Of a stretch of DNA of 64,000 nt, positions 1,976 through 62,277 are shown piece after piece. Every line of letters begins with the position of its first letter. Positions within the stretch are counted from its first letter, which is position 1. A model generated the notes under the pieces. The model was not told the origin of the DNA. It was given only the letters and a program-made list of their open reading frames with translations, and did no database searches. Both the position numbers and the translations under genes were made by a program. The DNA comes from an uncultured Actinomycetes bacterium (lineage in GTDB: Bacteria > Actinomycetota > Thermoleophilia > UBA2241), in NCBI GenBank assembly GCA_963799395.1, contig CAWCWZ010000063.1, positions 1,607 to 65,606 of the forward strand, written 5' to 3'.

Positions 1976-2081
1976 GGTTCGAGCACGGGAGGGGCGGCGG
2001 GACGGGCCGGGGCGGCGGGCGATTGTTCGCCCTTGCCGCCGCCCCGACTTGCCGCCGCCCCGACTTGCCGCCGGTGCGCCG

Positions 2082-2777
2082 TCAGGCGAGGGCCTCGACG
2101 ATCGCCGCTCCCAGCTCGGCCGGCCTGGTGAACTGCGGCCAGTGCCCGGTCGGCAGATCGACGAGCCGCGCGTTGCGCACCGCGGCGAGCTCCGCCAGAT
2201 ACGGGTGGCCCTTTGCCATCCACTCGCGCAGCTTGGCGGACGGGAACTCGCAGGTGATCACCGTGATCGGCACGTCGTAGCGGCGCGGGTCGCGCAGCAC
2301 CTGGCGATCGGTCGCCACCGCCGCCGGCTCGGGGATCGCCGTCGCCCGGAACCGGCGCCTCAGCTCGTCGTCCAGGTCGATGAGGTCCTCGCTTGTGAAC
2401 ACCGACCAGTCGGGCAGCGGGATCTCGCCGTCGACGACCGGCAGCTCGGCGTTGATCACGCCGCCGTCGCCAAGCGGCAGCGAGTCGACGTACACGACGC
2501 GGGCGACCCTGTCGGGCCGGGCGTCGACCGTCGCGTGGGCGATCGCCCCGCCGCCGCTGTGACCGACCAGCGCCACCGGCGCCTGGGTGGCGTCGACGGC
2601 CGCGACGACCGCGGCGACGTGATCGGCGAGGCCGATGCCGGCGCGCTCGTCGTCGATCGCGGCGAGGCCGGGCAGCGTCAGCGCGCGCGCCCGGTGGCCG
2701 GCGGCCGCAAGCGCCGGGACGATGCCGTCCCACGAGGCGGCGTTCAACCAGAATCCGGGGATGAGGATGACGTCCAT
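2082..2777 (-). CDS. alpha/beta-fold hydrolase
   Basis: Internal Met (MDVILIPGFWLNAASW...) of ORF 2082..3077 taken as the start. It has a GHSGGG nucleophile-elbow motif. The upstream 100 codons of the ORF are Arg/Pro-rich filler. Confidence 0.7.
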   Translation of the reverse strand: MDVILIPGFWLNAASWDGIVPALAAAGHRARALTLPGLAAIDDERAGIGLADHVAAVVAAVDATQAPVALVGHSGGGAIAHATVDARPDRVARVVYVDSLPLGDGGVINAELPVVDGEIPLPDWSVFTSEDLIDLDDELRRRFRATAIPEPAAVATDRQVLRDPRRYDVPITVITCEFPSAKLREWMAKGHPYLAELAAVRNARLVDLPTGHWPQFTRPAELGAAIVEALA

Positions 2778-2785
2778 ATCGGGCC

Positions 2786-3313
2786 TCACTGCGTCGGTGT
2801 TACGGGGTAGCGGATGATGGTCTTCATCTGCCTGGCGTCGGGCTTGGTCAGGTACTCCTCTTCGTGGGGCCTCGCGATCTCGTAGCCGCTCTCGGCCACA
2901 AAGGTGTGCAGCCGGGCGACCGTCGCGGGCTCGTCTGCGTAGGGCCCCAGGTGCAGGATGTGGGCCATGGTGCCGTACTCCCAGGTCTCCAGGCCGACCG
3001 GCACGTCCGGCACCGTCTGGGGCAGCTCGTCGGGGGCGAGGTCGTCGGGCACGGGAATACCCCACAGGCTCACCCACTGCTCGCGGGGCGTGTCGAGCGG
3101 CAGCGGCCAGCGCGCCCGCGGGGCGCTCACCTTGAACTCCGCGCCGCGCGGCTTGAGCACCTTGAACTTGAGCGTGTAGAGGGCCCCGAACAGGGCGGGA
3201 AAGACATCGGGGCCGACCTCGTTGGGGTCGCCCAGCGAGCGCACCACCGCCGTCTTCTGGGCGGGCATCTCAACGATGGCCGGCTTTTGACGGACGCCGA
3301 ACGGCAGAGCCAT
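2786..3313 (-). CDS. GyrI-like small-molecule-binding domain protein
   Basis: 175 aa ORF whose C-terminus (...MKTIIRYPVTP) and overall pattern are typical of GyrI-like effector-binding domains. It is tightly packed with the upstream GNAT gene. Confidence 0.5.
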   Translation of the reverse strand: MALPFGVRQKPAIVEMPAQKTAVVRSLGDPNEVGPDVFPALFGALYTLKFKVLKPRGAEFKVSAPRARWPLPLDTPREQWVSLWGIPVPDDLAPDELPQTVPDVPVGLETWEYGTMAHILHLGPYADEPATVARLHTFVAESGYEIARPHEEEYLTKPDARQMKTIIRYPVTPTQ

Positions 3314-3314
3314 C

Positions 3315-3776
3315 CTAGTCGGCCTGCAGGCGCTTCTCCAGGACGATCATCTCGGGCCGGTCGGGGGCGGGCTGCGGCACGAAGGCGTGGCCGCGGTAGA
3401 GGTGCTGCGAGCGCTCGTCGGCGGCCGGCACCAGGGCCCGCAGCCGGGCGCGGCGCTCGGCGAAGGCCAGGCCCTCGACCCAGTCCATCAGCTGGTGGGC
3501 CACGGCCTGGGCCTCGAAGGCGGGGTTGACGCACAGGCAGCGCACCTCGAGCGCCTCGGGGGCGCGCTCGACGGCCACGTAGCCGGCGATCTCGCCCTGG
3601 GATTCGGCGACGAACACCGTCGCCTCGCCGAACAGCGCGATCAGATCGCCGGGATCGTAGCGTTCGGGGTGGCCGGCGCCGGCGGCCAGGGGGTGGAGGG
3701 TCTCCTCGGCCAGGAAGAGGAGCATGCTCTCGTCGCCGTTCTGCATGGTGCGGATCTCGACCTTGACACGTGTCAT
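3315..3776 (-). CDS. GNAT family N-acetyltransferase
   Basis: 153 aa ORF with a GNAT motif-A-like segment (VRCLCVNPAFEAQAVAHQLMDW). Its stop is 2 nt from the next gene's start. Confidence 0.75.
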   Translation of the reverse strand: MTRVKVEIRTMQNGDESMLLFLAEETLHPLAAGAGHPERYDPGDLIALFGEATVFVAESQGEIAGYVAVERAPEALEVRCLCVNPAFEAQAVAHQLMDWVEGLAFAERRARLRALVPAADERSQHLYRGHAFVPQPAPDRPEMIVLEKRLQAD

Positions 3777-3809
3777 GCGGACCCTCCGGCACTCTCGGAG
3801 ACGCTCGGG

Positions 3810-4865
3810 TCACCCTTGAGCGATCATGTCCTCTTCCTCATGGATTGTATACCGCAGAGTGACCCAAACCAGCACGCTGACCGTGAGCCCGACGAGGGCT
3901 TCGAGCTGCTCTATATAGAAGGCGAAGACCTGGCCGACGAAGATCGACACGAGGGTCGCCCGCAAAAACCAGCGGTACGCCTCGAGGCGCGAGTGGCGCA
4001 GCACGACGATGCCCACGACCACCAGGACGCCGACCACGAGCGAGGCCACGAGCGAGCCCGCCCGGGCGAACTGCAGGGCGTTGCGGGCGGCGCTGCTCAG
4101 GCTCTGGTCGGGGGTCTCGGCGAGCTCGGCGACGCGCCGCACGGCCTCGACCGAGGCCACCAGCGAGGCCGCCACGAAGCCGGCCACGACCAGGCGCCCG
4201 AACCAGGGGCGGCCGACGAGGCGGCGGTAGGTCTGGTCGAGGGAGCGGCGCGCCTGCACCACCCAGTGCGGCGAGGGCGGCGGCGCCGCATCGATGCGTT
4301 CCAGGGCGGCCGTCAGCGCCGTCACCAGCGGGTCGTTCTGGTCGCAGCGCGTGAGCAGCAGCAGGGCGCGCCGTTTCTCGTCTGTGTCGAGGTCGCGGAT
4401 GACGGCCTCTTTGGTGAGCTCGAGGGCGCCGGCGAGGTTGGCCGCCGGCGAGCGCCGGGCGCCGGCGGCGAGGCGCCGGAAGACGAGCACGAGTACCACA
4501 AAGATGATGTAGATGAGGGCCACGGTGGGCCGGTAGAAGTAGTTGTTGTCGCGGCTGATGACCTTGCCGAGCTCGTCGATGAACACCCCAAAGCCGGCGC
4601 CGCCCATGACGGCTGCGATCTCCGCCGACAGGCGGCTGACCGAGACCAGCAGCATGACGATGGCCGCCATCATGCCGAGGCCGCCCCAGAGCATGTGGGC
4701 GATGTGCAGGTGGGCGCCGCCGAGGCTCGGGTACTCGGTGACGGCGAGGATGAAGCGCACCACCAGGAACGAGGTCACCGCGGCCACCCAGAACGCCTCG
4801 AGCAGGCCGCCGGCGTCCAGGCGCAGGACGAGCATGTGGCGGCGGAAGGGGTTCAGGCCGGCCAT
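3810..4865 (-). CDS. integral membrane protein, unknown function
   Basis: 351 aa ORF with multiple hydrophobic helices at the N- and C-terminal ends and a hydrophilic central region. I could not assign a family. Confidence 0.55.
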   Translation of the reverse strand: MAGLNPFRRHMLVLRLDAGGLLEAFWVAAVTSFLVVRFILAVTEYPSLGGAHLHIAHMLWGGLGMMAAIVMLLVSVSRLSAEIAAVMGGAGFGVFIDELGKVISRDNNYFYRPTVALIYIIFVVLVLVFRRLAAGARRSPAANLAGALELTKEAVIRDLDTDEKRRALLLLTRCDQNDPLVTALTAALERIDAAPPPSPHWVVQARRSLDQTYRRLVGRPWFGRLVVAGFVAASLVASVEAVRRVAELAETPDQSLSSAARNALQFARAGSLVASLVVGVLVVVGIVVLRHSRLEAYRWFLRATLVSIFVGQVFAFYIEQLEALVGLTVSVLVWVTLRYTIHEEEDMIAQG

Positions 4866-4881: not shown

Positions 4882-5725
4882 TCAGGCGGGGTAGGAGCCC
4901 AGCACCTTCAGCCAGGAGAGCTTGCAGCCGAGGCAGGAGAGCGCTTGGGCGATGGGCGGGTCGGAGCTGCGGCCCACCATGTCGATGAAGAAGATGTAGT
5001 CGCCGAGCCCCTGCTTGGAGGGCCGCGATTCGACCTTCGTCAGGTTGACGTAGCGGTAGGCGAACTCGGAGAGGATCATCAGCAGGCTGCCGGGCTGGTC
5101 CTGGGAGATGCCGCAGACGATGCTCGTCTTGAAGGTCTCGTCGGTCTCTTGCGGCGCCTCGTCGCGGCTCACGAAGACGAAGCGGGTGCGGTTCTCCTGG
5201 GCGTCGTCGATGTCGGGGGCGATCACCTCGCACTCGTACATCTCGGCCGCCAGGCGGGTGCCGATGGCCACCCACGGCCGGTCGACGCGGCTCACGCGGC
5301 GCACCGCTTCGGCGGTCGAGTCGGTGGCCTCGTGCTCGACGCCGTCCAGGTGCTCGCGGATGAACTCGCGGCACTGGCCGTAGGCGTGCGGGATGCTGAC
5401 GATCTTGGTGACGCGCTCGAACTCGAGCGGAGCGCCGGGCGATGAGCTGCTGGTGCACCTGCCAGGTGATCTCGCGCACGATGCGCAGCTCGTCGAAGCC
5501 GAAGGCCAGGCTGTCGAGGGTGACGACCACCGAGCCCTCGAGCGAGTTCTCGATGGGCACGATGCCCAGCGGCGCCTCGCCGGCCTGCACCGCCTTGAGC
5601 ACCTCGCGGATCGACGGGTAGGGGAACGGGTGGTAGGCGCCGATCGGCATGTTGGCCAGCAGGGCCTCTTCGCTGAAGGTGCCCTCGGGGCCGAGAAAGG
5701 CGATCGGCTGCGAGCCGGCGCTCAT
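4882..5725 (-). CDS. pheA: prephenate dehydratase (PDT catalytic domain plus ACT domain), reading frame broken by a 1-nt frameshift near 5432..5440
   Basis: The N-terminal PDT domain (MSAGSQPIAFLGPEGTFSEEALL...IVPIENSLEGSV...) lies in the frame of the composite ORF 4853..7579. The C-terminal part (APLEFERVTKIVSIPHAYGQCREF...ESRPS...VLGSYPA) lies in the frame of ORF 4882..5304. The span is 844 nt, which is not a multiple of 3. The start ATGA overlaps the stop of the upstream DUF4446 gene. Confidence 0.8.
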
Positions 5726-17128: not shown

Positions 17129-18124
17129 TCAGGCCTTGGCGATGAAGATCACGTAGACCAGGTAGAGCGCGTACATCGAGCCGGCCCCGCACAGCGTGAA
17201 CCAGGTGAGCTTGTGCCTGAGGCGCAGCTGCAGGTAGAACACCGTGCCCGAGACGAGCGCTAGCACGCCGCTGACGAGGCCCGTGCGCGTGAGCTGCCAG
17301 GTCGTGAAGAGCAGCCCGATCGACACCGGGAAGGTGCTCTGAAAGACCATCGCCCCGGTGATGTTGCCCAGGGCCAGCGTGTCCTTGCCCTGGCGCACCC
17401 AGATCACCGAGTTGAACTTCTCAGGCAGCTCGGTGGCGAGCGGGCTCAGGATCAGCGAGACGAGCAGCGGGTCGATCCCCAGTGAGGCGCTGACGTGCTG
17501 CACCTGGGTGACGAAGAAGCGCGCCCCGAGGATGATGCCCAGCGTCGCCACGCTGACCTGCAGGATGATGCGGCGCCGGTGGGGCATGACCGGGTGACGG
17601 TGAAAGTAGAGCGGCTTGGTCTCGCCCTCGAGCTGGCCGCCGACGCGCACCGTGCGCCAGACGTAGACGCCGTAGGCGACCAGCAGGCACGGCGACAGGA
17701 TCCACTTGACGTGGTGGTACGGCAGCACGCCGGCGATCATGGCGCAGGCGTAGGCGACGACGAAGAACGACAGGTCGCGACGCAGCACGGGCTCGTTGAT
17801 CGTGAACTCGAGTGGGCGCCGGCGGCGCAGGTAGAAGACGACGACGGCGCCGCCGGTGACGACCATGGTGAGGCTCGAGAGCATGAACGGGGCGCCGAGG
17901 ATGGCGCCGATGCCGATGTCCTTGGAGTCGGGGGCGTGGGTGAAGAGGATGGCGATGATCGGGATCAGCGTCTCGGGCAGGGCCGTCCCCACGGCCGCGA
18001 GCACGCTGCCCACCGCCCCCTCGCCGAGCTCGAAGCGCCGCCCGAACCACTCGATGCCGTTGGTGAACAGCTCGGCCGAGACAAGGATGATGGCCAGGGC
18101 GAGCAGGAGGTAGACGACGGTCAT
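17129..18124 (-). CDS. Ca2+/cation antiporter (CaCA / sodium-calcium exchanger family) membrane protein
   Basis: 331 aa with about 10 TM helices and two alpha-repeat-like segments (GTALPE... and SPLATELPE). Confidence 0.6.
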   Translation of the reverse strand: MTVVYLLLALAIILVSAELFTNGIEWFGRRFELGEGAVGSVLAAVGTALPETLIPIIAILFTHAPDSKDIGIGAILGAPFMLSSLTMVVTGGAVVVFYLRRRRPLEFTINEPVLRRDLSFFVVAYACAMIAGVLPYHHVKWILSPCLLVAYGVYVWRTVRVGGQLEGETKPLYFHRHPVMPHRRRIILQVSVATLGIILGARFFVTQVQHVSASLGIDPLLVSLILSPLATELPEKFNSVIWVRQGKDTLALGNITGAMVFQSTFPVSIGLLFTTWQLTRTGLVSGVLALVSGTVFYLQLRLRHKLTWFTLCGAGSMYALYLVYVIFIAKA

Positions 18125-18176
18125 GGTCCCGGCAGCTTACCACGCTGCCCGTGGCGCTCCGGCCGCGCGTCCGCCG

Positions 18177-19691
18177 CTACGTGTGCGACACCTCCTTGCG
18201 CACCTCGCGCGAGGCGAGCGCCCAGTAGACGAGGCCGCCGACGACGATGCCGATCAGCCAGCTCAAGTCGGAGCCCGACGTGCGCGAGGAGATCGGCCCC
18301 ACGTACGAGGGCACGTAGTACAGGGCATTGGTCCACATCATGGCGGCCGCCATGCCGAGGAGCTGGGCGATGACCGCCGGCCAGTGGAGGCCGCCATTGC
18401 GCCAGTAGAGGCCGCCGCGCTCCTTGGCGAGCGAGAGCGGGTCGTAACGCCCGCGTCGCAACAGGTAGTCGACCATCACGATGGCGAACCACGGGGCCAG
18501 CCAGACCACGATATAGAGCAGGAATCCCTTGAGGTCGGTGTAGAAGTCGCCCTTGAAGATGACCAGGGCGGTGACGATGGCCACGACCACGGTGTCAATG
18601 ATCACCGCCTGATAGCGGCGCACGGCGATGCCGATGGCCTGCAGGGTCACGCCCGAGGAGTACAGGTCGATCGTATTGATGGCGAAGAGCTGAGGCAGGG
18701 CGAGGATCATGTAGGGCCAGAAGAACCAGGCCGCGAAGGCCGCAGGGACGCCGGTCACGTCGAGGGTCTTGCTGCTGACGACAAAGGCGGCCGCGCCGAG
18801 CAACTCGAGCAGCAGCGAGGGGATAGCGGGGCCGAGCGTCGCCGCCCAGAAGGTCCTGGCCTTCGGCGTGGTGCGCGGCAGGTAGCGCGAGTAGTCGTTG
18901 CCGTTCTCGGTCCAGCCGAGCCCGCCGACCGAGATGATGACCACCAGCGCCGTCGTCCAGACGGCCCACGAGGCGCTCTGGTGCAGGCTGCTCAGATGAA
19001 CGTGGGGTACGATGAGGACGGCCATCACCGCAAAGACGGCGATGAACACGAACGACAGCCAGTGCAGCACCTTGGTGATCGTGGCGTGGCCGAGGAACGG
19101 CATGAGGAACTGCACGCCGACGGCGACCAGGATGAAGAGCACCTTGAGGCCGTTGCCGGCGGTCACGCCGCCGCGCAGGAACATCGCCTCGAACACCAGC
19201 ACGATGATGACGATGCCCTCGATCTCGAACCCGACCTGGGTGATCCAGTTGAAGAACGCCACGCCGCGGTTGGCGTTCTGCCCGAACGGCGCCCGGCTGA
19301 CCATGAAGGCGGTCGTGCCCGTGGCCGGGCCCTGCAGGCTGGCAAAGCCGAGCAGGATGTAGAAGACGTTGCCGGCGACGATGGCCAGCACCGCCTGCCC
19401 GAACGACAGCCCGAACGACATGATCAGCGCGCCGTAAACGAGGAACTCGACGTTCCATACCGCGCCGGCCCACAGCCAGAAGAGGCCGGCCGGGCGCATG
19501 GTGCGCGCCTCGTCGGGGATCAGCTCGATGCCACGCTGCTCGACCTTGAACGCGACGTTCTCGTCGGCCTGGTCCACAGGACCCGTGGGACTCGCGACGA
19601 CCGGCGTCTCTGCCACTGTCGCCCCCTTTCCGTGCTCGCTGCCGGGTACGGCCGTCGTCCGCCCCGCGCGGGGAGGCAATGACCGGGTCAC
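18177..19691 (-). CDS. NCS1-family (purine-cytosine / nucleobase) permease
   Basis: 504 aa twelve-helix transporter with NCS1-like segments. The true start may be an internal GTG or ATG about 25 codons downstream of the ORF start. Confidence 0.6.
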   Translation of the reverse strand: MTRSLPPRAGRTTAVPGSEHGKGATVAETPVVASPTGPVDQADENVAFKVEQRGIELIPDEARTMRPAGLFWLWAGAVWNVEFLVYGALIMSFGLSFGQAVLAIVAGNVFYILLGFASLQGPATGTTAFMVSRAPFGQNANRGVAFFNWITQVGFEIEGIVIIVLVFEAMFLRGGVTAGNGLKVLFILVAVGVQFLMPFLGHATITKVLHWLSFVFIAVFAVMAVLIVPHVHLSSLHQSASWAVWTTALVVIISVGGLGWTENGNDYSRYLPRTTPKARTFWAATLGPAIPSLLLELLGAAAFVVSSKTLDVTGVPAAFAAWFFWPYMILALPQLFAINTIDLYSSGVTLQAIGIAVRRYQAVIIDTVVVAIVTALVIFKGDFYTDLKGFLLYIVVWLAPWFAIVMVDYLLRRGRYDPLSLAKERGGLYWRNGGLHWPAVIAQLLGMAAAMMWTNALYYVPSYVGPISSRTSGSDLSWLIGIVVGGLVYWALASREVRKEVSHT

Positions 19692-21130: not shown

Positions 21131-21787
21131 GCCGCGAAGGCGCCGGCGGGCGCCGGGCGGACGTTGCGGCCGGCGCGGGCGGTCGCTAGGCGGGGATGGT
21201 CGCCGGCGCGGCCGGGATCTCCTCGGCTGCTCGGCGGCGCGGCTGCGGCGCGGGGCGGCGATCAGCGTTTCGAGCTCGAGCCGGTAGCGGCCCACGTGGC
21301 CGGCCATGCGCAGCCGCGAAAAGCCGCAGCCTTCGAGGACGGGGGCGTTGAAGAGGTTGAGCTCGCGCAGGTAGCCGGTGAAGCGGTCGTCGGGGCTGGG
21401 GTCGCGCAGCGCGTAGGCTTCGAGGGCGACGATCCGCCGCAGCTTGAGCGCCGCTACCACGTCCTGCAGCAGCATCTGAAAGCCCGGCAGGAACTGCTCG
21501 TCGTAGAAGAAGGCGCAGGCCAGCAGGTAGGAGTCGGCCGACGGCGGTCCGGTCGGCAGGTCGCGCCGCACGAGGGCGGCCGGCGCCGCCTGCATCCAGC
21601 CGAGCACGGCGCCACCGTCGAGCAGGGCCCGGCCGAACATGCCGGCCTCGGCTTCGACTTCGGCCTCCCAGTCCCGCCGCACGGTGGGTTCGGCGGCGGC
21701 CGGGGTCGCCTGCTGCCACCAGGTGCACGCCGCGCAGTCCTGCGGCAGCAGGTCTCGGCTGGCCGCGTTCAGATCGACACAGTTCAC
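20867..21787 (-). CDS. hypothetical protein; Cys-rich N-terminus (CAACTWWQQ) and a GNAT-like core. The C-terminal ~130 codons of the listed ORF are probably not real.
   Basis: The N-terminal ~190 aa look protein-like (…GMFGRALLDGGAVLGWMQAAP…YLLACAFFYDEQFLPGFQMLLQDVVAALKLRRIVALEAYA…). The remainder is Arg/Pro-rich and overlaps the convergent MgtE-N gene by 264 nt. An alternative frame stops at 21186, so a frameshift near 21190..21280 is suspected. Confidence 0.3.
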   Translation of the reverse strand: MNCVDLNAASRDLLPQDCAACTWWQQATPAAAEPTVRRDWEAEVEAEAGMFGRALLDGGAVLGWMQAAPAALVRRDLPTGPPSADSYLLACAFFYDEQFLPGFQMLLQDVVAALKLRRIVALEAYALRDPSPDDRFTGYLRELNLFNAPVLEGCGFSRLRMAGHVGRYRLELETLIAAPRRSRAAEQPRRSRPRRRPSPPSDRPRRPQRPPGARRRLRGLAEEPRQALLPVGGHDGVEGVVEGDDADQALLGVGHRQRQQVVLGHEPADLVLFGVDRGPRPVGVHERREGLLGRRQHELGETHGAQ

Positions 21788-22131
21788 GCGCCGGGCGCGG
21801 ACTCCCAGACGATGTCGTCGACGTGCACGCCGATCTCGTCCAGGTCGATGCCCGTCATGCTGTGCAGGTACGAGCGCACGGCCCGGCGGATCTGCGGCAC
21901 GAGCTGGGGCAGCTTCGCCGCCGGCGTGATGACGATGTGGAGGTCGAGCACGCGACGCCCTTCGCGCTCATCGAGACGCACCGGCCCGAGGCGTTCGAAG
22001 TGCACGCGCTCGCCCAGCGACTGCAGCGTGCTGCGGTGGAGCTCGGCGAGGCCGGGCAGTTCCTTGATCGCGTCCCAGACGTAGGTCGAGATGACCTCGG
22101 GCGAGTAGCTCTTGTCGGCGTTCTCGGTCAC
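21784..22131 (-). CDS. Asp23/Gls24 family (alkaline shock protein 23-like) protein
   Basis: 115 aa (MTENADKSYSPEVISTYVWDAIKELPGL…GVHVDDIVWE). Its stop overlaps the start of the downstream hypothetical gene in an ATGA arrangement. Confidence 0.75.
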   Translation of the reverse strand: MTENADKSYSPEVISTYVWDAIKELPGLAELHRSTLQSLGERVHFERLGPVRLDEREGRRVLDLHIVITPAAKLPQLVPQIRRAVRSYLHSMTGIDLDEIGVHVDDIVWESAPGA

Positions 22132-22189
22132 GGGCGCCTCGCGGGCTCTCGGGCTGCTGGGCGGGCGTTGGGCTGTTGGGCGCCGGTCG

Positions 22190-22262
22190 TGCCGCCGGCG
22201 CCGTGGTCGGTGCCCCGATTATAGTCCGAGCCCGACGCTCGCGTGAACATGAGCGTCGGGCT
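22190..22262 (-). promoter_or_regulatory. putative asp23 promoter: minus-strand TATAAT hexamer (plus 22218..22223) overlapped by a 13 bp inverted repeat
   Basis: On the minus strand a perfect TATAAT lies about 90 nt upstream of the asp23 start, with a weak -35 (TTCACG) at a 19 nt spacing. The inverted repeat GAGCCCGACGCTC-N10-GAGCGTCGGGCT(T) spans the -35 and spacer region. Confidence 0.3.
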
Positions 22263-22290
22263 TGCCGACGAGCACAGGGGGTCGGCCGCG

Positions 22291-22400
22291 GATGGCGTCG
22301 GGCGAACCGTGCGGGGTGGCCCGCGGGTGGCGCCGGCCAGGCGGGTAGGGTGACTCGCGGGTGGCGCCGGGGAACCGTGTGGGGTGCGCGCTACCTTGGA
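22291..22400. repeat. mirrored X-Y ... Y-X short repeats (X=GAACCGTG[C/T]GGGGTG, Y=CGCGGGTGGCGCCGG)
   Basis: The two motifs occur once in the order X-Y and again about 20 nt later in the order Y-X. They lie immediately 5' of the large palindrome. Confidence 0.8.
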
Positions 22401-22435
22401 CAATTGGCCCAGATCTGGCCAATTGTCCAAGGTAG
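22391..22435. repeat. near-perfect 44-45 bp palindrome CTACCTTGGACAATTGGCC(C)AGATCTGGCCAATTGTCCAAGGTAG
   Basis: The 19 nt arms are exact reverse complements. They contain nested palindromes (CAATTG, TTGGCCAA) around a central AGATCT. The only asymmetry is a single extra C next to the centre. Confidence 0.9.
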
Positions 22436-22537
22436 CCGAACGCACACACGCCCTCGGCCGGGCGACCTCTCGTTCGCCTGCGGTCCCGCCCTGCCGCTAC
22501 GAACCAGCCGCGGCCGCCGAAGGCCACCCCGCCACCG

Positions 22538-22610
22538 ATCGAGCCCCGCCGCCGGTCGAGCCCCGCCGCCGGCCGAGCCTCGCCGCCGGGCGCCCGCCGC
22601 CCCGCTGCGC
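22538..22610. repeat. about 3.5 tandem copies of a 17 bp unit GAGCCCCGCCGCCGG(T/C)C
   Basis: The units are directly readable as consecutive degenerate copies. The block is intergenic. Confidence 0.75.
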
Positions 22611-22618
22611 CTCGCCGA

Positions 22619-22647
22619 TTGCCCGGCCGCAGGCCATGGCCTATACT
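22619..22647 (+). promoter_or_regulatory. sigma-70-like promoter for the amidohydrolase gene (-35 TTGCCC, 17 nt spacer, -10 TATACT)
   Basis: Hexamers and spacing read directly. The spacer contains the palindrome GGCCATGGCC. The predicted leader (about 120 nt) contains a CGGGCC-N7-GGCCCG hairpin and the CACATGAC repeats. Confidence 0.4.
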
Positions 22648-22721
22648 CACGGCTCGGTGGTCCGGGGCGCGCGCCACGGGCCATTTTTCGGCCCGTCGTC
22701 AGACCCCTTCTCGCGGACGGC

Positions 22722-22792
22722 CTCACATGACCGCTCTTCACATGACCACGCTCACCTCTCACATGACGGCTCTCTCATGACCTCGCTCTATC
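22722..22792 (+). repeat. four imperfect direct repeats of CACATGAC, the last overlapping the amidohydrolase start codon; together they encode a 17-codon uORF
   Basis: CACATGACCGCTCTT / CACATGACCACGCTCACCTCT / CACATGACGGCTCTCT / CATGACCTCGCTCTAT. The first three ATGs share a frame that translates to MTALHMTTLTSHMTALS, then a TGA that overlaps the main ATG (ATGA). Confidence 0.7.
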
Positions 22793-24211
22793 GCGCCGAA
22801 TGGCTGCTGCCCATCACCGCCCCGCCGGTCCGGAACGGGGCGGTCGCCGTCGACGGCGAGCGCATCGTCGCGGTGGGCACGCTCAACGACGTGCGCGCCG
22901 CCTGCCCCGACGCGGTCGAGGTCGACTTTGGCCGGGCGGTCGTGATGCCGGGGTTCGTCAACGCCCACAGCCACCTCGAGTACACCAGCTTCCGCGGCAT
23001 GTTCGACGACCAGCAGTTCGGCGACTGGATCATCAGCCTGATCGACGTCAAGGCCTCGCTCACCCCCGACGAGTACCTGTGGAGCGCCCGTCTCGGGGCG
23101 CTCGAGGCGCTCGCCTCGGGGGTCACGACCATCGCCGACACCACCTACACCGGCGAGACCCTCACCGCCTCGGCCGAAGCCGGCCTGCGCGGCGTCGCCT
23201 ATCTCGAGGTCTTCGGCGTCGACGACAAGCGTCTCGACGAGACCATCGCCGACCTGCGTCGAGCGCCTCGCGCGGGCCCAGGCGCTGGCGAACCCGCGCC
23301 TCGAGATCGGCATCGCTCCGCACGCGCCCTACACCGTCTCCAGCCGCCTGTTCCAGACGCTCGCCGCCTTCGCCCGCGAGCGTCACCTGAAGGTCGCGAG
23401 CCACGTGGCCGAAAGCAAAGAAGAGGTCGCCTACATCCGCTCCGGCTCGGGCAAGTTCGCCCACGACTACCGCGAGAAGATGGGCTGGGAGCGCATGCTC
23501 ATCCAGCCCTACGGGGTGAGCCCCATCAAGTATCTGCAGCAGTGGGGCCTCTTCGACGAGAACTTCCTGGCCGTGCACTGCGTGCACGCGAGCATCGACG
23601 ACATCCGCATCCTCAAGGCCAAGCGGGTGGCCGTGGCCCACTGCCCCAAGAGCAACGCCAAGACCGGCTGCGGCATCGCCCCGCTGCCCGACCTTCTGCG
23701 CCAGGGCGTGCGGGTCGGCTTCGGCACCGACAGCCCGGCGGCGAGCAACATCATGGACATGTTCGACGAGATGCGCACCGCGCTGTTCCTGCACCGCGGC
23801 GTGGAGCGCGACGTCAGCGTGCTGAACGCCGCCCAGTGCATCCGCATCGCCACGCTCGGCGGGGCCGAAGCCCTGGGCCTCGACGACCGCGTCGGCTCGC
23901 TCGACCCCGGCAAGCAGGCCGATCTGATCGCCGTCGACGTCTCGAGCTCGCACTTCGTGCCGATCGACGACCCCTGCTCGGCTCTCGTCTACGGCGCCAA
24001 TCAGGACGACGTGCTGTTCACCTGCGTCGCCGGCGAGCCGCTCTACCAGGAGGGCGGGTTCCCGCGGCTCGACGCCCACGCCATCCGCGCCGAGAGCCGC
24101 AAGGTGCGCGCCAAGCTGCAGGCCCGGGTGGGCGAGGGCAGGGTCCGGGTCGGCGCCGCCGAATCCGGCTGGTGGCACAACCCGGCCGCGACAGACAAGA
24201 GGGAGAGCTGA
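22777..24211 (+). CDS. amidohydrolase-superfamily deaminase (chlorohydrolase / MtaD-like), interrupted by a +1 frameshift near 23255..23262
   Basis: The N-terminal half (MTSLYRAEWLLPI...MPGFVNAHSHLEY...) is in the frame of ORF 22384..24918. The remainder (VERLRAGQALANPRLEIGIAPHAPYTVSS...HVAESKEEVAYIRS...HCVH...GTDSPAASN...) is in the frame of ORF 23405..24211. The total length is not a multiple of 3. Confidence 0.75.
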
Positions 24212-24868
24212 TGCTCCTCAACCGCCAACGCGTGAAGTTCTGGCAGAAGATCGTCTTCGGCTTCATGGCGGTCCTCATGGCCGGCTTCCTGATCTTCGGC
24301 TACTCGGGCGTCATCCAGGGCTGCAGCGGGAATACCGTGAACTCGGGCAACAGCTCGCTCGACAGCCAGGTCAAGGCCGCCCTCGCCAGCCTCAAGAAGA
24401 ACCCCAACGACCCCACGGCGCTGCTCGGGGCGGCACAGGGCTACCAGTCGGCCGGGGTACGTCCAGAACGGCCTGCCCTCACCCAAACAGTCGAACGACC
24501 TGACCAGGGCACTCGGCTACTACGATCGCTACCTGAAGCTGCCCGACTCGGTACTTGGGGCGGCGGCGGTGGGCCTGCGCGTCAAGGCTCTCCTGGCGGA
24601 GGCCCCGATCTACAACGAGCTCATCGACTACAAAAGCGCGGTCGCCACCTACAAGAAGATACTCAAGCTGGAGCCGGGCTACTCCGACGCCTACCTGGGG
24701 ATCGCCTCCAGCGACGTCGCGGCCGGCAATACCGCCGACGCGATCGCCGCCTTCACGAAGTTCCTCAAGCTCGCCCCGCACTCGCAGTACGCGACCGAGG
24801 TCAAGAACGAGCTCGCCCAGCTTCAGGCGGCGGCGTCGGCGTCGCCCTCGCCCAGCGCCACGCCCTGA
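24211..24868 (+). CDS. membrane-anchored TPR-repeat protein, interrupted by a +1 frameshift in a GGGG run near 24454..24457
   Basis: The ATG overlaps the amidohydrolase stop (TGATG). The N-terminus with a TM helix (MLLNRQRVKFWQKIVFGFMAVLMAGFLIFGY...) is in one frame. The TPR-like remainder (YVQNGLPSPKQSNDLTRALGYYDRYLKL...AYLGIASSDVAAGNTADAIAAFTKFLKLAP) is in ORF 24569..24868. Confidence 0.55.
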
Positions 24869-25482: not shown

Positions 25483-27795
25483 GTGAGACTCATCGTCACC
25501 GAGAAAGACTCAGCCGCGCAGAAGATCGCCCAGATCCTGGGCGGCAGCGTGCGCGTCACCGAACACGGCCGCGGCCGCCAGCGCGTCAAGTCCTATGCCT
25601 TCGAGTGGGACGGCGCCCCGACCGTGTCGGTCGGGCTGCGCGGCCACGTCATGGAGACGACCTTCCCCAACACCTACCGCCGCTGGAGCCTCAAGTACCT
25701 GGATCAGATGATCCGCGAGCCCGACCTCGCCTGGGTGGTCGACGGCGACAGCGTCTCGACCGTCGCCGCCCTGCGCAGCGTCGCCAAGGGCGCGACCGAG
25801 ATCATCGTGGCCACCGACTACGATCGCGAGGGTGAGCTGATTGGCGAGGAGGCGCTGCGCATACTGCGCGGCGACGCCCTGCGGCGCCACCCCCACGACA
25901 AGCCCGAAAAGCCGGCCCGCGGCGCCAAGAAGGCGGCGGGGCGGGCGCGTCCCGCGCCCGCCCCGCCGCCCGACCCAGACGGCGACGGCGACGACGGCGC
26001 GGTGCGCCTCAAGCCGGCGGTGCCGCCGGCGGTCGTCGACCGCCATCACCGGGCGCGCTACTCGGCGCTCACGCCGGCCGAGGTCAAGCGCGCCTTCGCC
26101 AAGCTCGACACGCTCGACTTCAAGCTCGCCGACGCGGCTCACACGAGGCAGGACATCGACCTCATCTGGGGCGCCGTCCTCACCCGCTTCATGTCCCTGG
26201 CAAGCTACCGTTACGGCAGCGACTACCTGTCGATCGGGCGCGTGCAGACGCCTACCCTGCGCCTGGTCGTCGACCGCGAGCTCGAACGGCGGGCCTTCGT
26301 GCCGGTGCCCTACTGGGAGATCAAGGCCGAGCTCGAAGCCGGCAGCGGCGAGCGCTTCACGGTCGAGCACGCCAAGGGCCGCTTCCTGGCCGTCGCCGAC
26401 GCCGAGACGGCCCTCGCCGGCGCCCAGACCGACTCGGCCGAGGTCACGGCCTACGCCACCACGCCACGCTCGCTGGCGCCGCCGGCGCCGTTCAACACGA
26501 CGGCGCTCATGAGCGCCGCCTCGGGCGCCGGGGTCGCTCCCTCGCGGGCCATGAAGGCGGCCGAGTCGCTGTACCTCGACGGCCTCATCAGCTACCCGCG
26601 CACCGACAACACGGTCTACCCGCCGTCGCTCGACCTGCACGCGGTGCTGCACGAGCTGGCCCGCCACGGGCCGGTATCGTCGATCGCCGCCGAGCTCGCC
26701 GGCCAAGCGGCGCTCAAGCCGACCCGCGGCAAGAAGCGCACCACCGACCACCCGCCGATCTACCCGGTCGGCGTGCCCAGGAGCGAGCTGCACGGCGACC
26801 AGGCGCGCGTCTACGACCTCGTCGTGCGGCGCTTCCTGGCCACCCTGCTGCCGGCGGCGGTGATCGAGGGCCAGCGGCTCGACGTGCGCCTCGGCAGCGA
26901 GCCCTTCGTGGGCCGCGGCAGCCGCGTCGCCAGGCCCGGGTTCCTGCGCGCCTGGCAGCCCTACACCGCCGACCGCGAGCGCCCGCTGCCGCAGGCGGCC
27001 GTGGGCGACATCCTGGCGGTCCTGGGCGTGCGCCTCGACGCCAAAGAGACGCAGCCGCCGGCGCGCTTCGGCCAGGGGCCGCTGATCGAGAAGATGGAGG
27101 AGCTTGACCTGGGCACCAAGGCCACGCGCGCCGACATCATCCAGCATCTCTACGACCGCAACTACGTGCGCGACAACCCCGTCGAGCCGACCGAGCTCGG
27201 CATCGCCGTCATCCGCGCCTTCGACGCCGCCGTGCCCAGCGGGCCGCTCGACATCTCCTCGCCGGCGATGACCGCCCGGCTCGAAGAAGAGATGGACCGC
27301 ATCGCCCTCGGCGACCTGCAGAAGGAACGGGTCGTGGGCGACAGCCAGGAGCTGCTGGCCCAGGCCCACCAGGCCCTCGAGGGCCAGATCGAAGCCATCC
27401 GCGCCGAGATCAAGGGGGCCGTGCGCGAAGACATGACGCTCGGCGTCTGCGCCACCTGCGGCGGCGAGCTGCGCATCCTGCGCGGCAAGACCGGCAAGCG
27501 GTTTGTGGCCTGCGTGGGCAAGGAGGGCGACGAAGCGAAGGTGCCCGAGGGCGCGCCCGCAGGCACGCGGCCGCGGCGCGGCTGCGGGCAGACGTTCCCG
27601 CTGCCGCAGCGGGGTGCTATCATCGCCAAAGGGACCAACTGCCCCACCTGCGGTTGGCCCGAGATCACTGTGCTCACGTCGAGCGGCCGCGGGCGACCAT
27701 GGCAGCTCTGTCTGGATCCCGATTGTCCCACCAAGGTGAACTACAAGAAGCGGGCGTCCAAGCGGCCCGGCTCGCGGGGGGCGGCTTCTTCGTAA
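25483..27795 (+). CDS. topA: type IA DNA topoisomerase (Toprim plus topoisomerase core, two C-terminal C4 zinc ribbons)
   Basis: 770 aa with a Toprim N-terminus (MRLIVTEKDSAAQKIA...), a core region containing the probable active-site Tyr (...GLISYPRTDN...), and C-terminal motifs CATCGG…C and CPTCGWPE…CLDPDCP. The topA-tmk-holB order is common in actinobacteria. Confidence 0.75.
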   Translation: MRLIVTEKDSAAQKIAQILGGSVRVTEHGRGRQRVKSYAFEWDGAPTVSVGLRGHVMETTFPNTYRRWSLKYLDQMIREPDLAWVVDGDSVSTVAALRSVAKGATEIIVATDYDREGELIGEEALRILRGDALRRHPHDKPEKPARGAKKAAGRARPAPAPPPDPDGDGDDGAVRLKPAVPPAVVDRHHRARYSALTPAEVKRAFAKLDTLDFKLADAAHTRQDIDLIWGAVLTRFMSLASYRYGSDYLSIGRVQTPTLRLVVDRELERRAFVPVPYWEIKAELEAGSGERFTVEHAKGRFLAVADAETALAGAQTDSAEVTAYATTPRSLAPPAPFNTTALMSAASGAGVAPSRAMKAAESLYLDGLISYPRTDNTVYPPSLDLHAVLHELARHGPVSSIAAELAGQAALKPTRGKKRTTDHPPIYPVGVPRSELHGDQARVYDLVVRRFLATLLPAAVIEGQRLDVRLGSEPFVGRGSRVARPGFLRAWQPYTADRERPLPQAAVGDILAVLGVRLDAKETQPPARFGQGPLIEKMEELDLGTKATRADIIQHLYDRNYVRDNPVEPTELGIAVIRAFDAAVPSGPLDISSPAMTARLEEEMDRIALGDLQKERVVGDSQELLAQAHQALEGQIEAIRAEIKGAVREDMTLGVCATCGGELRILRGKTGKRFVACVGKEGDEAKVPEGAPAGTRPRRGCGQTFPLPQRGAIIAKGTNCPTCGWPEITVLTSSGRGRPWQLCLDPDCPTKVNYKKRASKRPGSRGAASS

Positions 27796-28472: not shown

Positions 28473-29577
28473 CATCCCCGGACAGGCGCGGGCCAAGGCC
28501 TACGTGGCCGGAGCGCTCGCCCACGGGGCGGGCCACGCCTATCTGCTGGCCGGTCCCGAAGGGCTCGGCAAGCGCCGCTTCGCGCTCGAGCTCGGCGCCC
28601 ACCTGGTGGCCACCTGCGGCGGCTGCGGCGGCTGCGACGAATGCGACCGCCTGGCCCGCGGGGTGCACCCCGACCTCGTCGTGATCGAGCGCGAGGGCGA
28701 GTTCATCCGCATCGAGCAGATCGCCGAGCTCATCGCCGACCTCAGCCTCAAGCCGTTCACGTCGAGCCATCGCGCCTGGATCGTGGTCGAGCCCGAGCGC
28801 CTGAACGTCGAGGCCGCCAACACCTTTCTCAAGAGCCTCGAGGAGCCGCCCGACGACGTCCACTTCATCCTCGTGTCCGACGCGGCCGAGCGCGTGTTGC
28901 CGACCATCATCTCGCGCTGCCAGATGGTCGAGTTCCAGCCCGTGCCCGACGAGGACCTCTGCGCCTTTCTCGTCGCCCGCGAGGGCCTCGACGAGGGGCG
29001 TGCCGCGGTGCTCGCCCGGCTCGCCGGCGGCTCGCTCGAGCGGGCTCTGCGCCTGGCCGGCGACGACCGCGGGCCGCGGCACCGCGAGCGCTACCTGCGC
29101 CTGTCGGCCGGCATCGTCCTGCACGACCGCGACGCCGAGCGCGCCTTCGTCGACGAGGTCGGCAACGCCGAGGCCGCGGCGGCGGGCGATGTCGAGACCG
29201 ACATCGCCCGCCGCCGCGGCGAGCTCGAGCGCAGCGTGCCCGACGACCGCGAGCGCGCCTTTCACGCCCGCCGCCTCGACGCCCTGCAGCGCCGCGAGCA
29301 GGCGCGCGTCGCCCGCCTGGCGGCGCTCGACGCGCTCGACGACCTCGCGAGCTTCGTGCGCGACGTCTGGGCGGTCGGGCTCGGCGCGGCCGACGCCGTC
29401 GCCAACCGCGACCGGCTGGCCGAGCTCGAGCACGCCGCCGTCGCCCGGCCCGACATCTACGCCCGCCTGCTCGACTGCATGGGGCGCACTCGCCGGGATC
29501 TGTCCCTGAACATCGACCGCAGGCTCGCCCTGCAGGCCATGTTTGCCCGCTTCCAGGAGGTCTGGGAAAGTGCCTAG
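28462..29577 (+). CDS. holB: DNA polymerase III subunit delta-prime
   Basis: 371 aa AAA+ clamp-loader fold (HAYLLAGPEGLGKRRFA, zinc-module cysteines CGGCGGCDEC, SRCQMVEF box). Confidence 0.8.
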   Translation: MFADIPGQARAKAYVAGALAHGAGHAYLLAGPEGLGKRRFALELGAHLVATCGGCGGCDECDRLARGVHPDLVVIEREGEFIRIEQIAELIADLSLKPFTSSHRAWIVVEPERLNVEAANTFLKSLEEPPDDVHFILVSDAAERVLPTIISRCQMVEFQPVPDEDLCAFLVAREGLDEGRAAVLARLAGGSLERALRLAGDDRGPRHRERYLRLSAGIVLHDRDAERAFVDEVGNAEAAAAGDVETDIARRRGELERSVPDDRERAFHARRLDALQRREQARVARLAALDALDDLASFVRDVWAVGLGAADAVANRDRLAELEHAAVARPDIYARLLDCMGRTRRDLSLNIDRRLALQAMFARFQEVWESA

Positions 29578-54451: not shown

Positions 54452-54838
54452 TTGCCGATCTACGAGTACCGCTGCGACGCGTGCGGCCACACGCTCGAGG
54501 TCTTTCAGAAGTTCTCAGACGAGCCCCTCGAGACCTGCGAGGTCTGCGGCGGCCACCTCGCCAAGGTCCTGCACCCGGTCGCCATCCACTTCAAGGGCTC
54601 GGGCTTCTACACCACCGACTACGGTCGCGGGTCGAGCAAGGCCCGCGCCGCCGACGCCGGGGCCAAGGCCGACGCCGACGCCAAGGGCGACGGCACGTCC
54701 GGCGCCGAGGCCAAGAAGGCCGCCGAGCCCACGGCCAAGGCGGCGGGCAACGGCGATGGCGGAACGACAGGCAAGGCGGCGGGCGGCGGCGGCGAAGCCG
54801 CCGCCGCCCGCCGCTCGACCACCGACAAGGCCGGCTAG
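54452..54838 (+). CDS. FmdB-family zinc-ribbon protein with Ala/Lys-rich tail
   Basis: MPIYEYRCDACGHTLEV…CEVCGG (CxxC…CxxC), then a low-complexity KA-rich C-terminus. Confidence 0.7.
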   Translation: MPIYEYRCDACGHTLEVFQKFSDEPLETCEVCGGHLAKVLHPVAIHFKGSGFYTTDYGRGSSKARAADAGAKADADAKGDGTSGAEAKKAAEPTAKAAGNGDGGTTGKAAGGGGEAAAARRSTTDKAG

Positions 54839-56222: not shown

Positions 56223-60999
<4,777 letters not shown>

Positions 61000-62239: not shown

Positions 62240-62277
62240 CCGCAAGGACGTGGTCTGCGGCCGCGCAGGTACGAGAC

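Follow-up and report, generated by a model that had tools for sequence, protein, structure and literature searches.

What is a long, nearly perfect palindrome doing between two divergently transcribed genes? The question arises in a 64-kb window (the whole stretch of DNA analysed here), where gene coordinates and the Pfam Asp23 assignment confirmed the position given in the preliminary description, between an asp23-family gene and an amidohydrolase gene. The features of the locus are as follows; the palindrome and its parts have no strand.

21784–22131, minus strand: asp23-family gene (Pfam Asp23), flanking the element
22218–22247, minus strand: predicted asp23 promoter, TTCACG-18-TATAAT; −10 box conserved in relatives, 193 bp from the palindrome centre
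22301–22386, plus strand: repeats of a 34-nt unit, two full and an 18-nt partial third, duplicating the palindrome-side flank GGsGAACCGTGyGGGGTG
22376–22389: left flanking extension, CGTGTGGGGTGCGC, pairing with 22437–22452; semi-conserved family flank of the GGGTGTG type
22390–22409: left arm, GCTACCTTGGACAATTGGCC, one of a 100% complementary pair; unique in the window
22401–22406: CAATTG core of the left 16–18-bp sub-palindrome, TTGGACAATTGGCCCA
22410–22416: central spacer, CAGATCT; 7 nt here, 8 nt in all other family copies
22417–22436: right arm, GGCCAATTGTCCAAGGTAGC, one G short of the family consensus GGGCC
22420–22425: CAATTG core of the right sub-palindrome
22437–22452: right flanking extension, CGAACGCACACACGCC, including the sGsAA and CACACC flank consensus
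22527–22594, plus strand: 17-bp tandem repeat, about 3–4 copies, inside a lineage-specific intergenic expansion and absent from relatives
22619–22647, plus strand: predicted amidohydrolase promoter, TTGCCC-17-TATACT; −10 box conserved in relatives, 232 bp from the palindrome centre
22777–24211, plus strand: amidohydrolase gene, flanking the element and frameshifted by one extra G at 23256

The palindrome had been described as near-perfect and 44–45 bp long, with 19-nt arms; an inverted-repeat search of the window upheld the palindrome and returned fully complementary arms of 20 nt each. As for the nested palindromes also reported, CAATTG is present in both arms, but TTGGCCAA does not occur in the window, which holds only TGGCCA, in the right arm alone. 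Both occurrences of CAATTG in the 64 kb are inside the arms. The 19-mer arm matches two places in the window, both in the palindrome (0.02 expected; none of 100 shuffles gave two or more matches), and no further palindrome copies or half-sites were found there. Upon folding, 22370–22456 formed an extended hairpin of −35.9 kcal/mol as DNA (z = −9.6) and −57.4 kcal/mol as RNA (z = −9.0). Both its length and its AT shift had been thought unlikely by chance. The AT shift is distinctive (stem GC about 50%); length alone is not, since the window contains at least eight other perfect hairpins with 17–23-nt arms, all of them GC-rich, terminator-like in appearance and closed by 2–4-nt loops. What sets the palindrome apart is its AT-shifted composition, its 7–8-nt centre and its membership of a multi-locus family.

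Genome and metagenome scans revealed that the palindrome is one copy of a lineage-specific, undescribed family of intergenic 48-bp elements. The consensus is GCTACCTTGAACAATTGGCC-N8-GGCCAATTGTTCAAGGTAGC, continued at both ends by a weaker extension of the sGsAA / CACACCC type. Pooled over related genomes, copies occupy at least 11–12 distinct intergenic loci, and their hosts are uncultivated peat and bog Actinomycetota, sampled as MAGs and metagenomes of 67–72% GC. Representative MAGs carry at most three exact-arm loci each, and the window carries one copy. The GGCC-N8-GGCC spacing is fixed: the centre is 8 nt long in 34/34 full copies other than the window's, for example GGCCCAGATCTGGGCC, and the CAATTG cores are 20 bp apart, centre to centre, in all copies but the window's, where the distance is 19 bp. 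The asymmetry first attributed to one extra C is thus better seen as the lack of one G from the right arm, through either misassembly or a deletion private to the window. A homopolymer artefact, the cause proposed at the time, is plausible for the palindrome but wrong for the neighbouring amidohydrolase gene, whose extra G at 23256 is not in a homopolymer.

The genes flanking the copies differ by locus and include asp23/amidohydrolase, prfA, gatZ, cooF-cooS beside a Crp-like gene, GH18, a PQQ-type dehydrogenase, pfkB, a beta-propeller gene and GNAT/saccharopine dehydrogenase. Genes are divergent at loci A (that of the window) and C, tandem at several others, where about 100 bp separate the element from the −10 box that follows, and convergent only at locus K. 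Paired copies on one contig enclose housekeeping genes such as prfA, prmC and GH18. Many short contigs end less than 100 nt from a copy, and tandem repeats lie beside copies in the window, in L017, at the second L036 copy and in L033b/L067. The element fits no known family. There were no Rfam matches at the elements of 14 related loci (at the palindrome itself Rfam 15 gave only sub-threshold miRNA-hairpin noise), and literature searches for the motif matched primers only. Plasmid and phage collections gave no match, so that an origin from either was rejected; three viral-contig matches to the centre pattern were unrelated low-GC sequences.

Arm positions 7–21 hardly differ among the unrelated loci, and wherever both arms have been retained a change in one is matched by its complement in the other. 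The 6 nt at the centre and the outer 6 nt of the arms are free to vary, the centre often being asymmetric, and information content is high across the arms and at background about 6 nt beyond them. Orthologues at loci A, B, C, D, E, F and I keep 46–48 of the 48 nt while their flanks diverge. The preliminary description had tied a regulatory role to conservation in close relatives; at the asp23/amidohydrolase locus the palindrome is indeed kept in closer relatives (Asp23 94–95% identical) amid intergenic DNA that cannot be aligned, which supports a sequence-specific function. More distant relatives (L001, L002, L006–L016) lack the palindrome and keep both promoters.

Presence/absence polymorphism was observed at three orthologous loci, asp23/amidohydrolase and two others, with flanking proteins 86–91% identical. 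Compared with empty sites, the filled sites at A, B and C contain 150–310 extra bp of heterogeneous DNA, including tandem repeats. Some stably inherited copies are degenerate: the global palindrome is broken and the CAATTG-centred sub-palindromes are kept or improved (D, TTGAACAATTGATCAA; E, TGGGCCAATTGGCCCA). Flanks are common to certain unrelated loci, 31 nt between A and C and about 24 nt between F and K, which points to DNA copying and not to independent origin of the sites; copies therefore probably spread by copy-and-paste or recombination. The pair TTGGACA/TGTCCAA (‘G variant’) is common to the window (locus A), L065 (B) and L046/L067 (C). A reading of this as one concerted change across the genome was rejected: the L065 genome has an empty C locus and the gatZ gene of L046 is 98.6% identical to that of an A-variant contig, L033, and therefore cross-locus concerted evolution could not be shown. 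Also rejected was a hairpin extending generally into the flanks, as flank complementarity exceeded controls only at A, G and H and not family-wide.

A second motif accompanies the palindrome. Beside it, at most other loci, stand outward-facing GGTTGACGA 9-mers with a 20–23-nt period, the first of which lies 43–45 nt from the palindrome end at B, E, F, H, K, M and I, across a spacer of unconserved sequence. GTTGACG, a 7-mer of GGTTGACGA, occurs 3.4 times per kb in element flanks versus 0.17 per kb in the background. At the prfA locus, genomes have either both the palindrome and the 9-mer array or neither, and no arrays were found in relatives without the palindrome. The window copy has lost its intact 9-mers; the 34-nt-unit repeats at 22301–22386 are possibly decayed remnants of GGTTGACGA-type arm repeats. 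Two other explanations of the 9-mers were discarded. As −35 boxes of outward promoters they are followed by no −10-like signal after 16–19 nt, and for a structured RNA spanning 9-mer, spacer and palindrome RNAalifold gave only the inner hairpin on either strand.

Promoter distances were taken to −10 boxes predicted by consensus match. A −10-like hexamer lies 98–106 bp downstream of the centre at five of them: A (in L004), B, E, G and C, the distance at C (about 104 bp) having been counted by hand from the sequence. It lies at 132–136 bp at F and in one B orthologue, and, for A, at 192–266 bp in the window, L031 and L050, giving a range of 98–266 bp among locus A orthologues.

We propose that a sequence-specific DNA-binding protein occupies the element, probably as two dimers; this is our best reading, with a probability of roughly 45%. 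The element would act as double-stranded DNA, offering the protein a high-affinity docking site. Each arm can be viewed as a CAATTG-centred pseudo-palindrome of 16–18 bp with the half-site T[T/G]G-NN-CAA, and the two centres are separated by about two helical turns, a spacing compatible with a pair of dimers (a tetramer) on one helix face. The 9-mers stand off from the centre by about 7 helical turns and the −10 box by about 10, and this phasing suggests an upstream nucleoprotein complex that would modulate the adjacent promoter(s). The window copy, which sits between divergent promoters and appears to have been pushed to its present distances by local tandem duplications, may be a weakened or decaying member, given this displacement and its lost 9-mers. 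The symmetric substitutions could reflect hairpin-templated correction of one arm by the other, selection for dyad symmetry, or both. Among the options listed in the preliminary description (dimeric or tetrameric regulator, cruciform, recombination site, end of a miniature mobile element), the tetrameric regulator appears the best supported.

Tandem operators of dimer-of-dimers regulators, such as the paired ARG boxes of ArgR, QacR-type TetR operators and C-protein operators, resemble the element in having two adjoining 16–18-bp pseudo-palindromes with centres about two helical turns apart, a variable middle and strongly conserved bases where half-site contacts could be made. In contrast to such operators, the sites here are 48/48 identical across loci, have functionally unrelated target genes and lie at least about 100 bp upstream of the −10 box instead of overlapping the promoter. 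We know of no operator consensus that fits the half-site T[T/G]GNNCAA with a CAATTG core, and a literature search likewise returned no match. The DnaA box, the FNR/CRP, LexA and Rex sites and the dif arms do not appear to fit in either spacing or critical bases. No regulator gene is consistently adjacent to the copies; a Crp-like gene is found at D, ArsR-like and XRE genes in L020, and DeoR genes in L060 and L065.

Some observations agree with protein docking and others do not. At the divergent loci A and C the element is upstream of both promoters, in keeping with a role at the DNA level, and dispersal, sequence constraint, sub-site logic, fixed geometry, position relative to predicted promoters and co-occurrence with the 9-mers all suit a docking site. 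On the other side, the flanking genes form no coherent regulon, locus K lies between convergent genes with no evident promoter, the promoter distance at locus A is variable and the window copy is far from both of its promoters. Near-identity over 48 bp is unusual for the sites of one regulator and more typical of copied repeats, and strictly complementary substitutions are what a hairpin constraint predicts.

The main rival, possible though on balance doubtful, is a selfish or formerly mobile palindromic repeat of the REP/BIME or very small MITE type. Its hairpin unit would have been spread in trans by an HUH/RAYT-type or other transposase, or by recombination, and would persist between genes with no dedicated regulatory role; fork stalling, local tandem duplications and assembly breaks would be by-products. 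Such a repeat would account for near-identical copies at multiple loci, the polymorphism at three of them, the flanks shared by A/C and F/K, the purely complementary arm substitutions, the tandem repeats and contig ends that gather beside copies, and the single copy between convergent genes. It is harder to reconcile with the heterogeneous 150–310 bp that separate filled from empty sites without any target-site duplication, and with single-arm matches that comprise no full-length IS with these ends, only degenerate copies or chance matches in coding sequence. Copies seem to be few (one in the window, at most three exact-arm matches per representative MAG), and the plasmid, phage and viral-contig searches were negative. 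In addition, most copies are upstream of promoters and not downstream of genes, and both the fixed 43–45-nt spacing of the 9-mers and the stable inheritance of degenerate copies suggest functional selection.

Many dispersed copies with target-site duplications were the sign by which a MITE was to be recognised; neither such duplications nor a parent IS nor a clean 48-bp unit was found. Immediate flanks are inverted-complementary (…sCC|GCTACC…GGTAGC|GGs…) and not direct repeats, the only possible direct repeat being a doubtful GCCGAC hexamer at locus C. Arm pairs separated by an IS-sized interval were absent from the genome and metagenome scans. Neisseria Correia elements and enterobacterial ERIC/IRU sequences, 100–150 bp long with terminal inverted repeats and, for Correia, a TA target-site duplication, are likewise small intergenic repeats of palindromic form, present in some relatives and absent from others, and able to affect the transcription of nearby genes. 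They differ from the present family, in which the conserved unit is a central 48-bp palindrome without target-site duplication.

The comparison with REP and BIME sequences (Nunvar 2010, PMC2817692; Di Nocera 2013, PMC3733652) is closer in some respects than in others. Both groups are short, dispersed intergenic palindromes that form lineage-specific families with variable presence among relatives, and REPs often occur as tightly apposed inverted dimers foldable as one large stem-loop (PMC2817692, PMC3733652). Each arm here ends in GTAG (…CAAGGTAGC), reminiscent of GTAG-tagged REPs (PMC3733652). In REPs, however, a conserved GTAG or CGTC tag stands unpaired at the 5′ end of each unit (PMC3733652, PMC2817692), whereas here GTAG is at the 3′ end of the arm and paired with GCTACC of the other arm. 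The arms here are nearly perfect 20–24-mers, in contrast to the imperfect 5–13-bp stems of REPs. REP copy number usually exceeds 100 per genome, with some families at 20–100, and most REPs follow genes, in the intervals between unidirectional or convergent ORFs, and are associated with a RAYT (TnpA-REP) gene that has repeats on either side (PMC3733652, PMC2817692). The present copies are apparently few and mostly upstream of promoters, and the Pfam lists of the loci examined include no RAYT or Y1-transposase domain. None of the REP families covered in PMC3733652 is from Actinobacteria (0 mentions).

A more elaborate scheme is improbable in our estimation. The palindrome would be the core of an undescribed composite site of nucleoprotein assembly, in which a 48-bp core whose 8-bp centre varies is joined through a fixed spacer of 44 bp to phased GGTTGACGA arrays, the whole installed or maintained about 105 bp upstream of promoters by a domesticated transposase, recombinase or initiator-like protein with two DNA-binding specificities. 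Its effect might be a lineage-specific rewiring or insulation of housekeeping promoters.

It is very unlikely that the element works at the RNA level, as a transcribed 20–24-bp hairpin serving as bidirectional terminator or insulator, RNase III site or mRNA stabiliser. The hairpin is very stable, its variation is of the compensatory type with a free loop, and where genes are in tandem (B, E and F), as on one side of K, a transcript of the upstream gene would carry it in its 3′ region, after the 9-mers. At the divergent loci A and C, however, it is upstream of both −10 boxes, and at K a GC-rich terminator hairpin belonging to the convergent gene itself accompanies the palindrome, as read from the sequence around L042 4200–4320. 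Moreover, the stem sequence is conserved far beyond structural need, the genome's ordinary terminator-like hairpins are GC-rich with 2–4-nt loops, and neither an Rfam match nor a conserved structure in the adjoining 44 nt was detected. An intrinsic terminator in particular was rejected given the stem of about 50% GC, the lack of a T-run after the palindrome and the site between divergent promoters; a scan of 21900–23000 found no terminator-like site.

Next in order, and again with very little probability, comes a site-specific recombination site of the att, cer or lox type, in which inverted core sites would surround a variable 8-bp crossover and GGTTGACGA would provide arm-type or accessory sites for a tyrosine recombinase. 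Core-plus-arm sites, among them lambda attP, cer/psi with their accessory sequences and the 13-8-13 loxP, likewise have inverted arms, a site-specific 6–8-bp centre and side direct repeats at defined distances; here the arms are invariant, the 8-bp centre is locus-specific, arm spacing is fixed and a second motif class is present as direct repeats 45–200 bp to one or both sides. Known arms, however, measure 9–13 bp versus 20 bp here, and the many chromosomal copies lie by housekeeping genes, which also fill the interval between paired copies, and signs of an integrated element are lacking. The gene and ORF lists show neither an integrase nor a recombinase gene beside any copy, many compatible sites per chromosome would be destabilising, and the copies are orthologously stable.

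A unique, locus-specific operator of the asp23/amidohydrolase promoters, the leading idea of the preliminary description, would suit the position between divergent genes and the retention in close relatives, but it is already contradicted by the multi-locus distribution, since the genome and metagenome scans placed the same 48-mer at 11 or more other loci with unrelated genes, and it is further at odds with −10 boxes 193 and 232 bp away in the window, with distances that vary among orthologues and with relatives that keep both promoters without the palindrome.

If the family is the protein-binding module that we favour, it defines a regulon-like or architectural network in abundant uncultivated peat-soil Actinomycetota and provides a 48-bp bait for isolating the cognate protein. 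If it is a selfish repeat, it would be, as far as we could find, the first REP-like family described in this lineage, unusually perfect and promoter-proximal, and would show long palindromes seeding local tandem duplications and breaking short-read assemblies. Under either reading, the strictly complementary substitutions offer a clean natural case of concerted evolution of palindrome arms.

A minor observation concerns the CAATTG core. In 314 kb of related DNA, every CAATTG lies in an element; the one exception, in the unrelated contig L032, was rejected as a half-site or IS end because it is a chance match inside a 913-aa ORF (R-Y-L-E-Q-L-A). Avoidance of CAATTG through restriction-modification was likewise rejected: order-2 and order-3 Markov models expect only 1.1–1.5 occurrences outside the elements, and the pattern therefore reflects the general rarity of AATT.

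The palindrome at 22390–22436 reads GCTACCTTGGACAATTGGCC-CAGATCT-GGCCAATTGTCCAAGGTAGC, and a repeat search returned two 20-nt arms, 100% complementary and 7 nt apart; the near-perfect palindrome of the preliminary description is therefore confirmed, with arms of 20 rather than 19 nt. The CAATTG reported inside the arms is present, twice, and these are the only two in the whole window; TTGGCCAA, described as a further nested palindrome, is absent from it. Folded as a single strand, 22370–22456 forms an extended hairpin (−35.9 kcal/mol as DNA, −57.4 kcal/mol as RNA; z about −9). Elsewhere in the 64-kb window the 19-mer arm does not recur (0.02 occurrences expected), and neither the relaxed core nor the sub-site pattern has a match. 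As described, the element lies between divergent genes, in a 645-bp gap:

21784–22131, minus strand: asp23-family gene
22218–22223: TATAAT of the predicted sigma-70-like asp23 promoter
22301–22386: window-specific tandem repeat of 34-nt units, on one side of the palindrome
22390–22436: palindrome
22527–22594: window-specific tandem repeat of 17-nt units, on the other side
22642–22647: TATACT of the predicted sigma-70-like amidohydrolase promoter
from 22777, plus strand: amidohydrolase gene

Length alone does not set the palindrome apart, as the window contains at least eight other perfect, GC-rich hairpins with arms of 17–23 nt and loops of 2–4 nt. The following eight are likely intrinsic terminators, possibly bidirectional:

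42377–42426 (this one of the eight has A and T runs at its flanks)
29173–29220
44205–44249
58389–58430
54776–54814
25932–25970
62275–62312
37919–37954

Copies of the element are dispersed in related genomes. Scanning species-representative genomes with the pattern CTACCTTGRACAATTGGCC matched three peat Actinomycetota MAGs, bog_752 (three different loci), palsa_645 and MFD01476.bin.4.90, besides six single-arm chance matches in other phyla. The same pattern retrieved 29 contigs from JGI metagenomes which, save for a few chance single-arm matches, come from bog, peat or palsa and have 67–72% GC. A CAATTG census of 314 kb of related high-GC loci recovered two additional diverged copies; all but one of the CAATTG found there lie within palindrome elements, always paired 20 bp apart. 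Contig L032 was rejected as a family member, its CAATTG being a chance coding match on an unrelated contig. Sorted by flanks and neighbouring genes, the search for further copies proposed earlier thus yields at least 11–12 distinct loci, among them (handles beginning with L denote related contigs):

Locus A: asp23/amidohydrolase, the window's own
Locus B: upstream of prfA
Locus C: between gatZ and a gene led by a Moco riboswitch (Moco/tungsten riboswitch adjoining the copy at L046 2547–2670, minus strand)
Locus D: between a Crp-like gene and cooF-cooS
Locus E: between tag and a GH18 gene
Locus F: upstream of a PQQ-type dehydrogenase gene
Locus G: upstream of pfkB
Locus H: upstream of a putative NADP-oxidoreductase-like gene
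Locus I: upstream of a beta-propeller gene
Locus K: between convergent GNAT and saccharopine-dehydrogenase-like genes
Locus M: a further locus

At locus D, contig L019 encodes an anaerobic CODH (cooS-like) and a cooF-like ferredoxin (1361–4692) downstream of a Crp/Fnr-family regulator. The stretch separating the regulator gene from cooF holds a degenerate palindrome copy, and some 1.4 kb from this copy is a cobalamin riboswitch (5410–5581, plus strand). Many short-read metagenome contigs (L028, L035, L038, L044, L049, L020, L005 and L056) break off no more than about 100 nt away from a copy. The palindrome thus appears to break short-read assemblies and hence to be under-represented in binned MAGs. 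The family had no match in plasmid, phage or viral collections, in Rfam or, as a motif, in the literature, nor did we find a described family that fits it; the nearest known kinds are dispersed intergenic palindromes or operator-like sites.

Few Asp23 homologues were found, nearly all of them metagenomic. Where Asp23 is 86–90% identical (L001, L002, L006, L007–L016), gene order and both −10 boxes are kept, the gap measures just 210–240 bp and the palindrome is absent; at about 94–95% identity (L004, L005, L017, L031, L055, L050, L053 and L056) it is present, so that the conservation sought in close relatives extends to this group. In these, the first 12–30 nt of flank are conserved and farther sequence is unalignable. 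Their copies are perfect 48-bp palindromes, GCTACCTTGAACAATTGGCCCAGATCTGGGCCAATTGTTCAAGGTAGC, differing from the window by a complementary pair (left arm A against G in the window, right arm T against C) and by GGGCC in place of GGCC. All 34 of the other full copies have the spacing GGCC-N8-GGCC; the N7 centre is therefore private to the window, and its missing G is plausibly an assembly error. The window copy is an ordinary family member, possibly decaying; the main interest lies in the family architecture found through related loci.

Orthologous gaps with and without the element were compared at two further loci. At prfA, filled sites (L065, L033, L036) carry the palindrome and an array of a second motif in a 407–440-bp gap, and empty sites of the same synteny (L060, L061; PrfA 89% identical) have neither in 132 bp. 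The gatZ site is filled in L067, L046 and L033 and empty in L066 (same contig as L065); the extra 150–190 bp, tandem repeats included, starts just upstream of the resident GACGTTGCC −35 region. Flank is shared between loci A and C (31 nt) and between F and K (about 24 nt), which argues that copies arose by DNA copying rather than convergent evolution. Tandem repeats of 13–40-nt units also adjoin copies at L017 2590–2650, L036 13410–13530, L033 9790–9870 and L067 850–890; their recurrence across loci and genomes suggests a destabilising effect of the palindrome on replication nearby.

The second motif, the 9-mer GGTTGACGA, emerged from a k-mer screen of palindrome flanks and is oriented away from the palindrome. 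Its 7-mer core GTTGACG, used for counting, has a density of 3.4 per kb in the flanks and 0.17 per kb in background, and is found in eight locus classes. The first 9-mer stands 43–45 nt from the palindrome end at loci B, E, F, H, K, M and I (on both sides in the L037 copy of I), and more often follow every 20–23 nt, up to 6–7 at prfA. The 44-nt spacer is conserved in length and hardly in sequence; no consensus RNA structure was found in it, nor any −10-like signal after the 9-mers. Measured from the palindrome centre, strong −10-like hexamers are 98–106 bp away at A (L004), B, E and G, about 104 bp at C (hand count), 132–136 bp at F and one B orthologue, and 192–266 bp elsewhere at A. Within 400 bp of the window copy there is no intact 9-mer, and the window-specific tandem repeats flank it instead. 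Relatives lacking the palindrome have neither 9-mer arrays nor CAATTG, the latter absence reflecting the general rarity of AATT.

Within the element, arm positions 7–21 (TTGAACAATTGGCC[C/A]) are nearly invariant and, in copies retaining both arms, vary solely as complementary pairs: A:T to G:C at position 10 (window, L046/L067, L065), AA:TT to TT:AA at 10–11 (second L036 copy) and C:G to A:T at 21 (many copies). These substitutions may stem from hairpin-templated correction between arms rather than selection, and so do not decide between models. The outer GCTACC varies without compensation, and the central six bases vary, often asymmetrically (AGATCT, ACATCT, TGATGT, ACTTCT, GGATCT and others). 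In three degenerate forms inherited stably across species (D, E and the L037 copy of I), the global palindrome is broken and the CAATTG-centred 16-mers are kept or even perfected (TTGAACAATTGATCAA in D, TGGGCCAATTGGCCCA in E). Each arm is therefore itself a pseudo-palindrome with the half-site T[T/G]G-NN-CAA, the arm centres being 20 bp apart.

The element is thus lineage-specific, dispersed, strongly conserved, and gained or lost among relatives, with fixed internal spacing and fixed spacing to the second motif. Our best reading, at a probability of roughly 45%, is a double-stranded DNA docking site for a sequence-specific protein. It is favoured by conservation of the sequence itself beyond pairing, by the behaviour of the degenerate copies, by spacings that fit multiples of about 10.5 bp, and by the position upstream of both promoters at divergent loci. 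In its simplest form, each CAATTG-centred sub-site would bind one dimer, and the pair would belong to a phased upstream complex in which the 9-mers also take part.

The main rival, a REP/MITE-like selfish palindrome, would explain the near-identity of copies, the flank common to unrelated loci, presence and absence, complementary substitutions, adjacent tandem repeats and contig breaks. We nevertheless consider it less likely: copy number looks low, and the family failed on the 5′ GTAG tag, the parent IS and the location downstream of genes, as well as on the target-site duplication named earlier as the mark of a MITE, no clean one being seen between filled and empty sites. A survey of REPs covered eight phyla, Actinobacteria not among them (PMC3733652). 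Less well supported than either, an RNA hairpin is improbable, a recombination site marginally more so, and a unique operator scarcely credible.

Several minor features of the window stand apart from the palindrome. A perfect 12-bp inverted repeat, AGCCCGACGCTC-N10-GAGCGTCGGGCT (22229–22262), surrounds the predicted asp23 −35 box TTCACG, a position closer to that of a classical operator than the 48-bp palindrome's; it was not seen in L004. At the amidohydrolase start (22722–22787), four copies of a 14–21-nt unit with CACATGAC (CTCACATGACCGCTCT-like) face a single copy in relatives (…GGTCATGTGAC…), so this start-codon region is tandemly duplicated in the window genome. Relative to three orthologues, one extra G at 23256 (GACCT[G]CGTCG), outside any homopolymer, breaks the frame of this conserved gene; it is an assembly error, or else the gene has recently become a pseudogene. 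Downstream, a TPR-protein gene (24141–24868) seems split over two frames, which may be a second frameshift; the L002 and L007 orthologues are intact (217–236 aa). Among named homologues of the flanking proteins, the closest carry the label Thermoleophilia (71–81% identity). ARAGORN called a 93-nt tRNA-Gly(ACC) at 18105–18197, unusual in length and anticodon and overlapping the ends of long ORFs, which may be spurious or represent an atypical tRNA.
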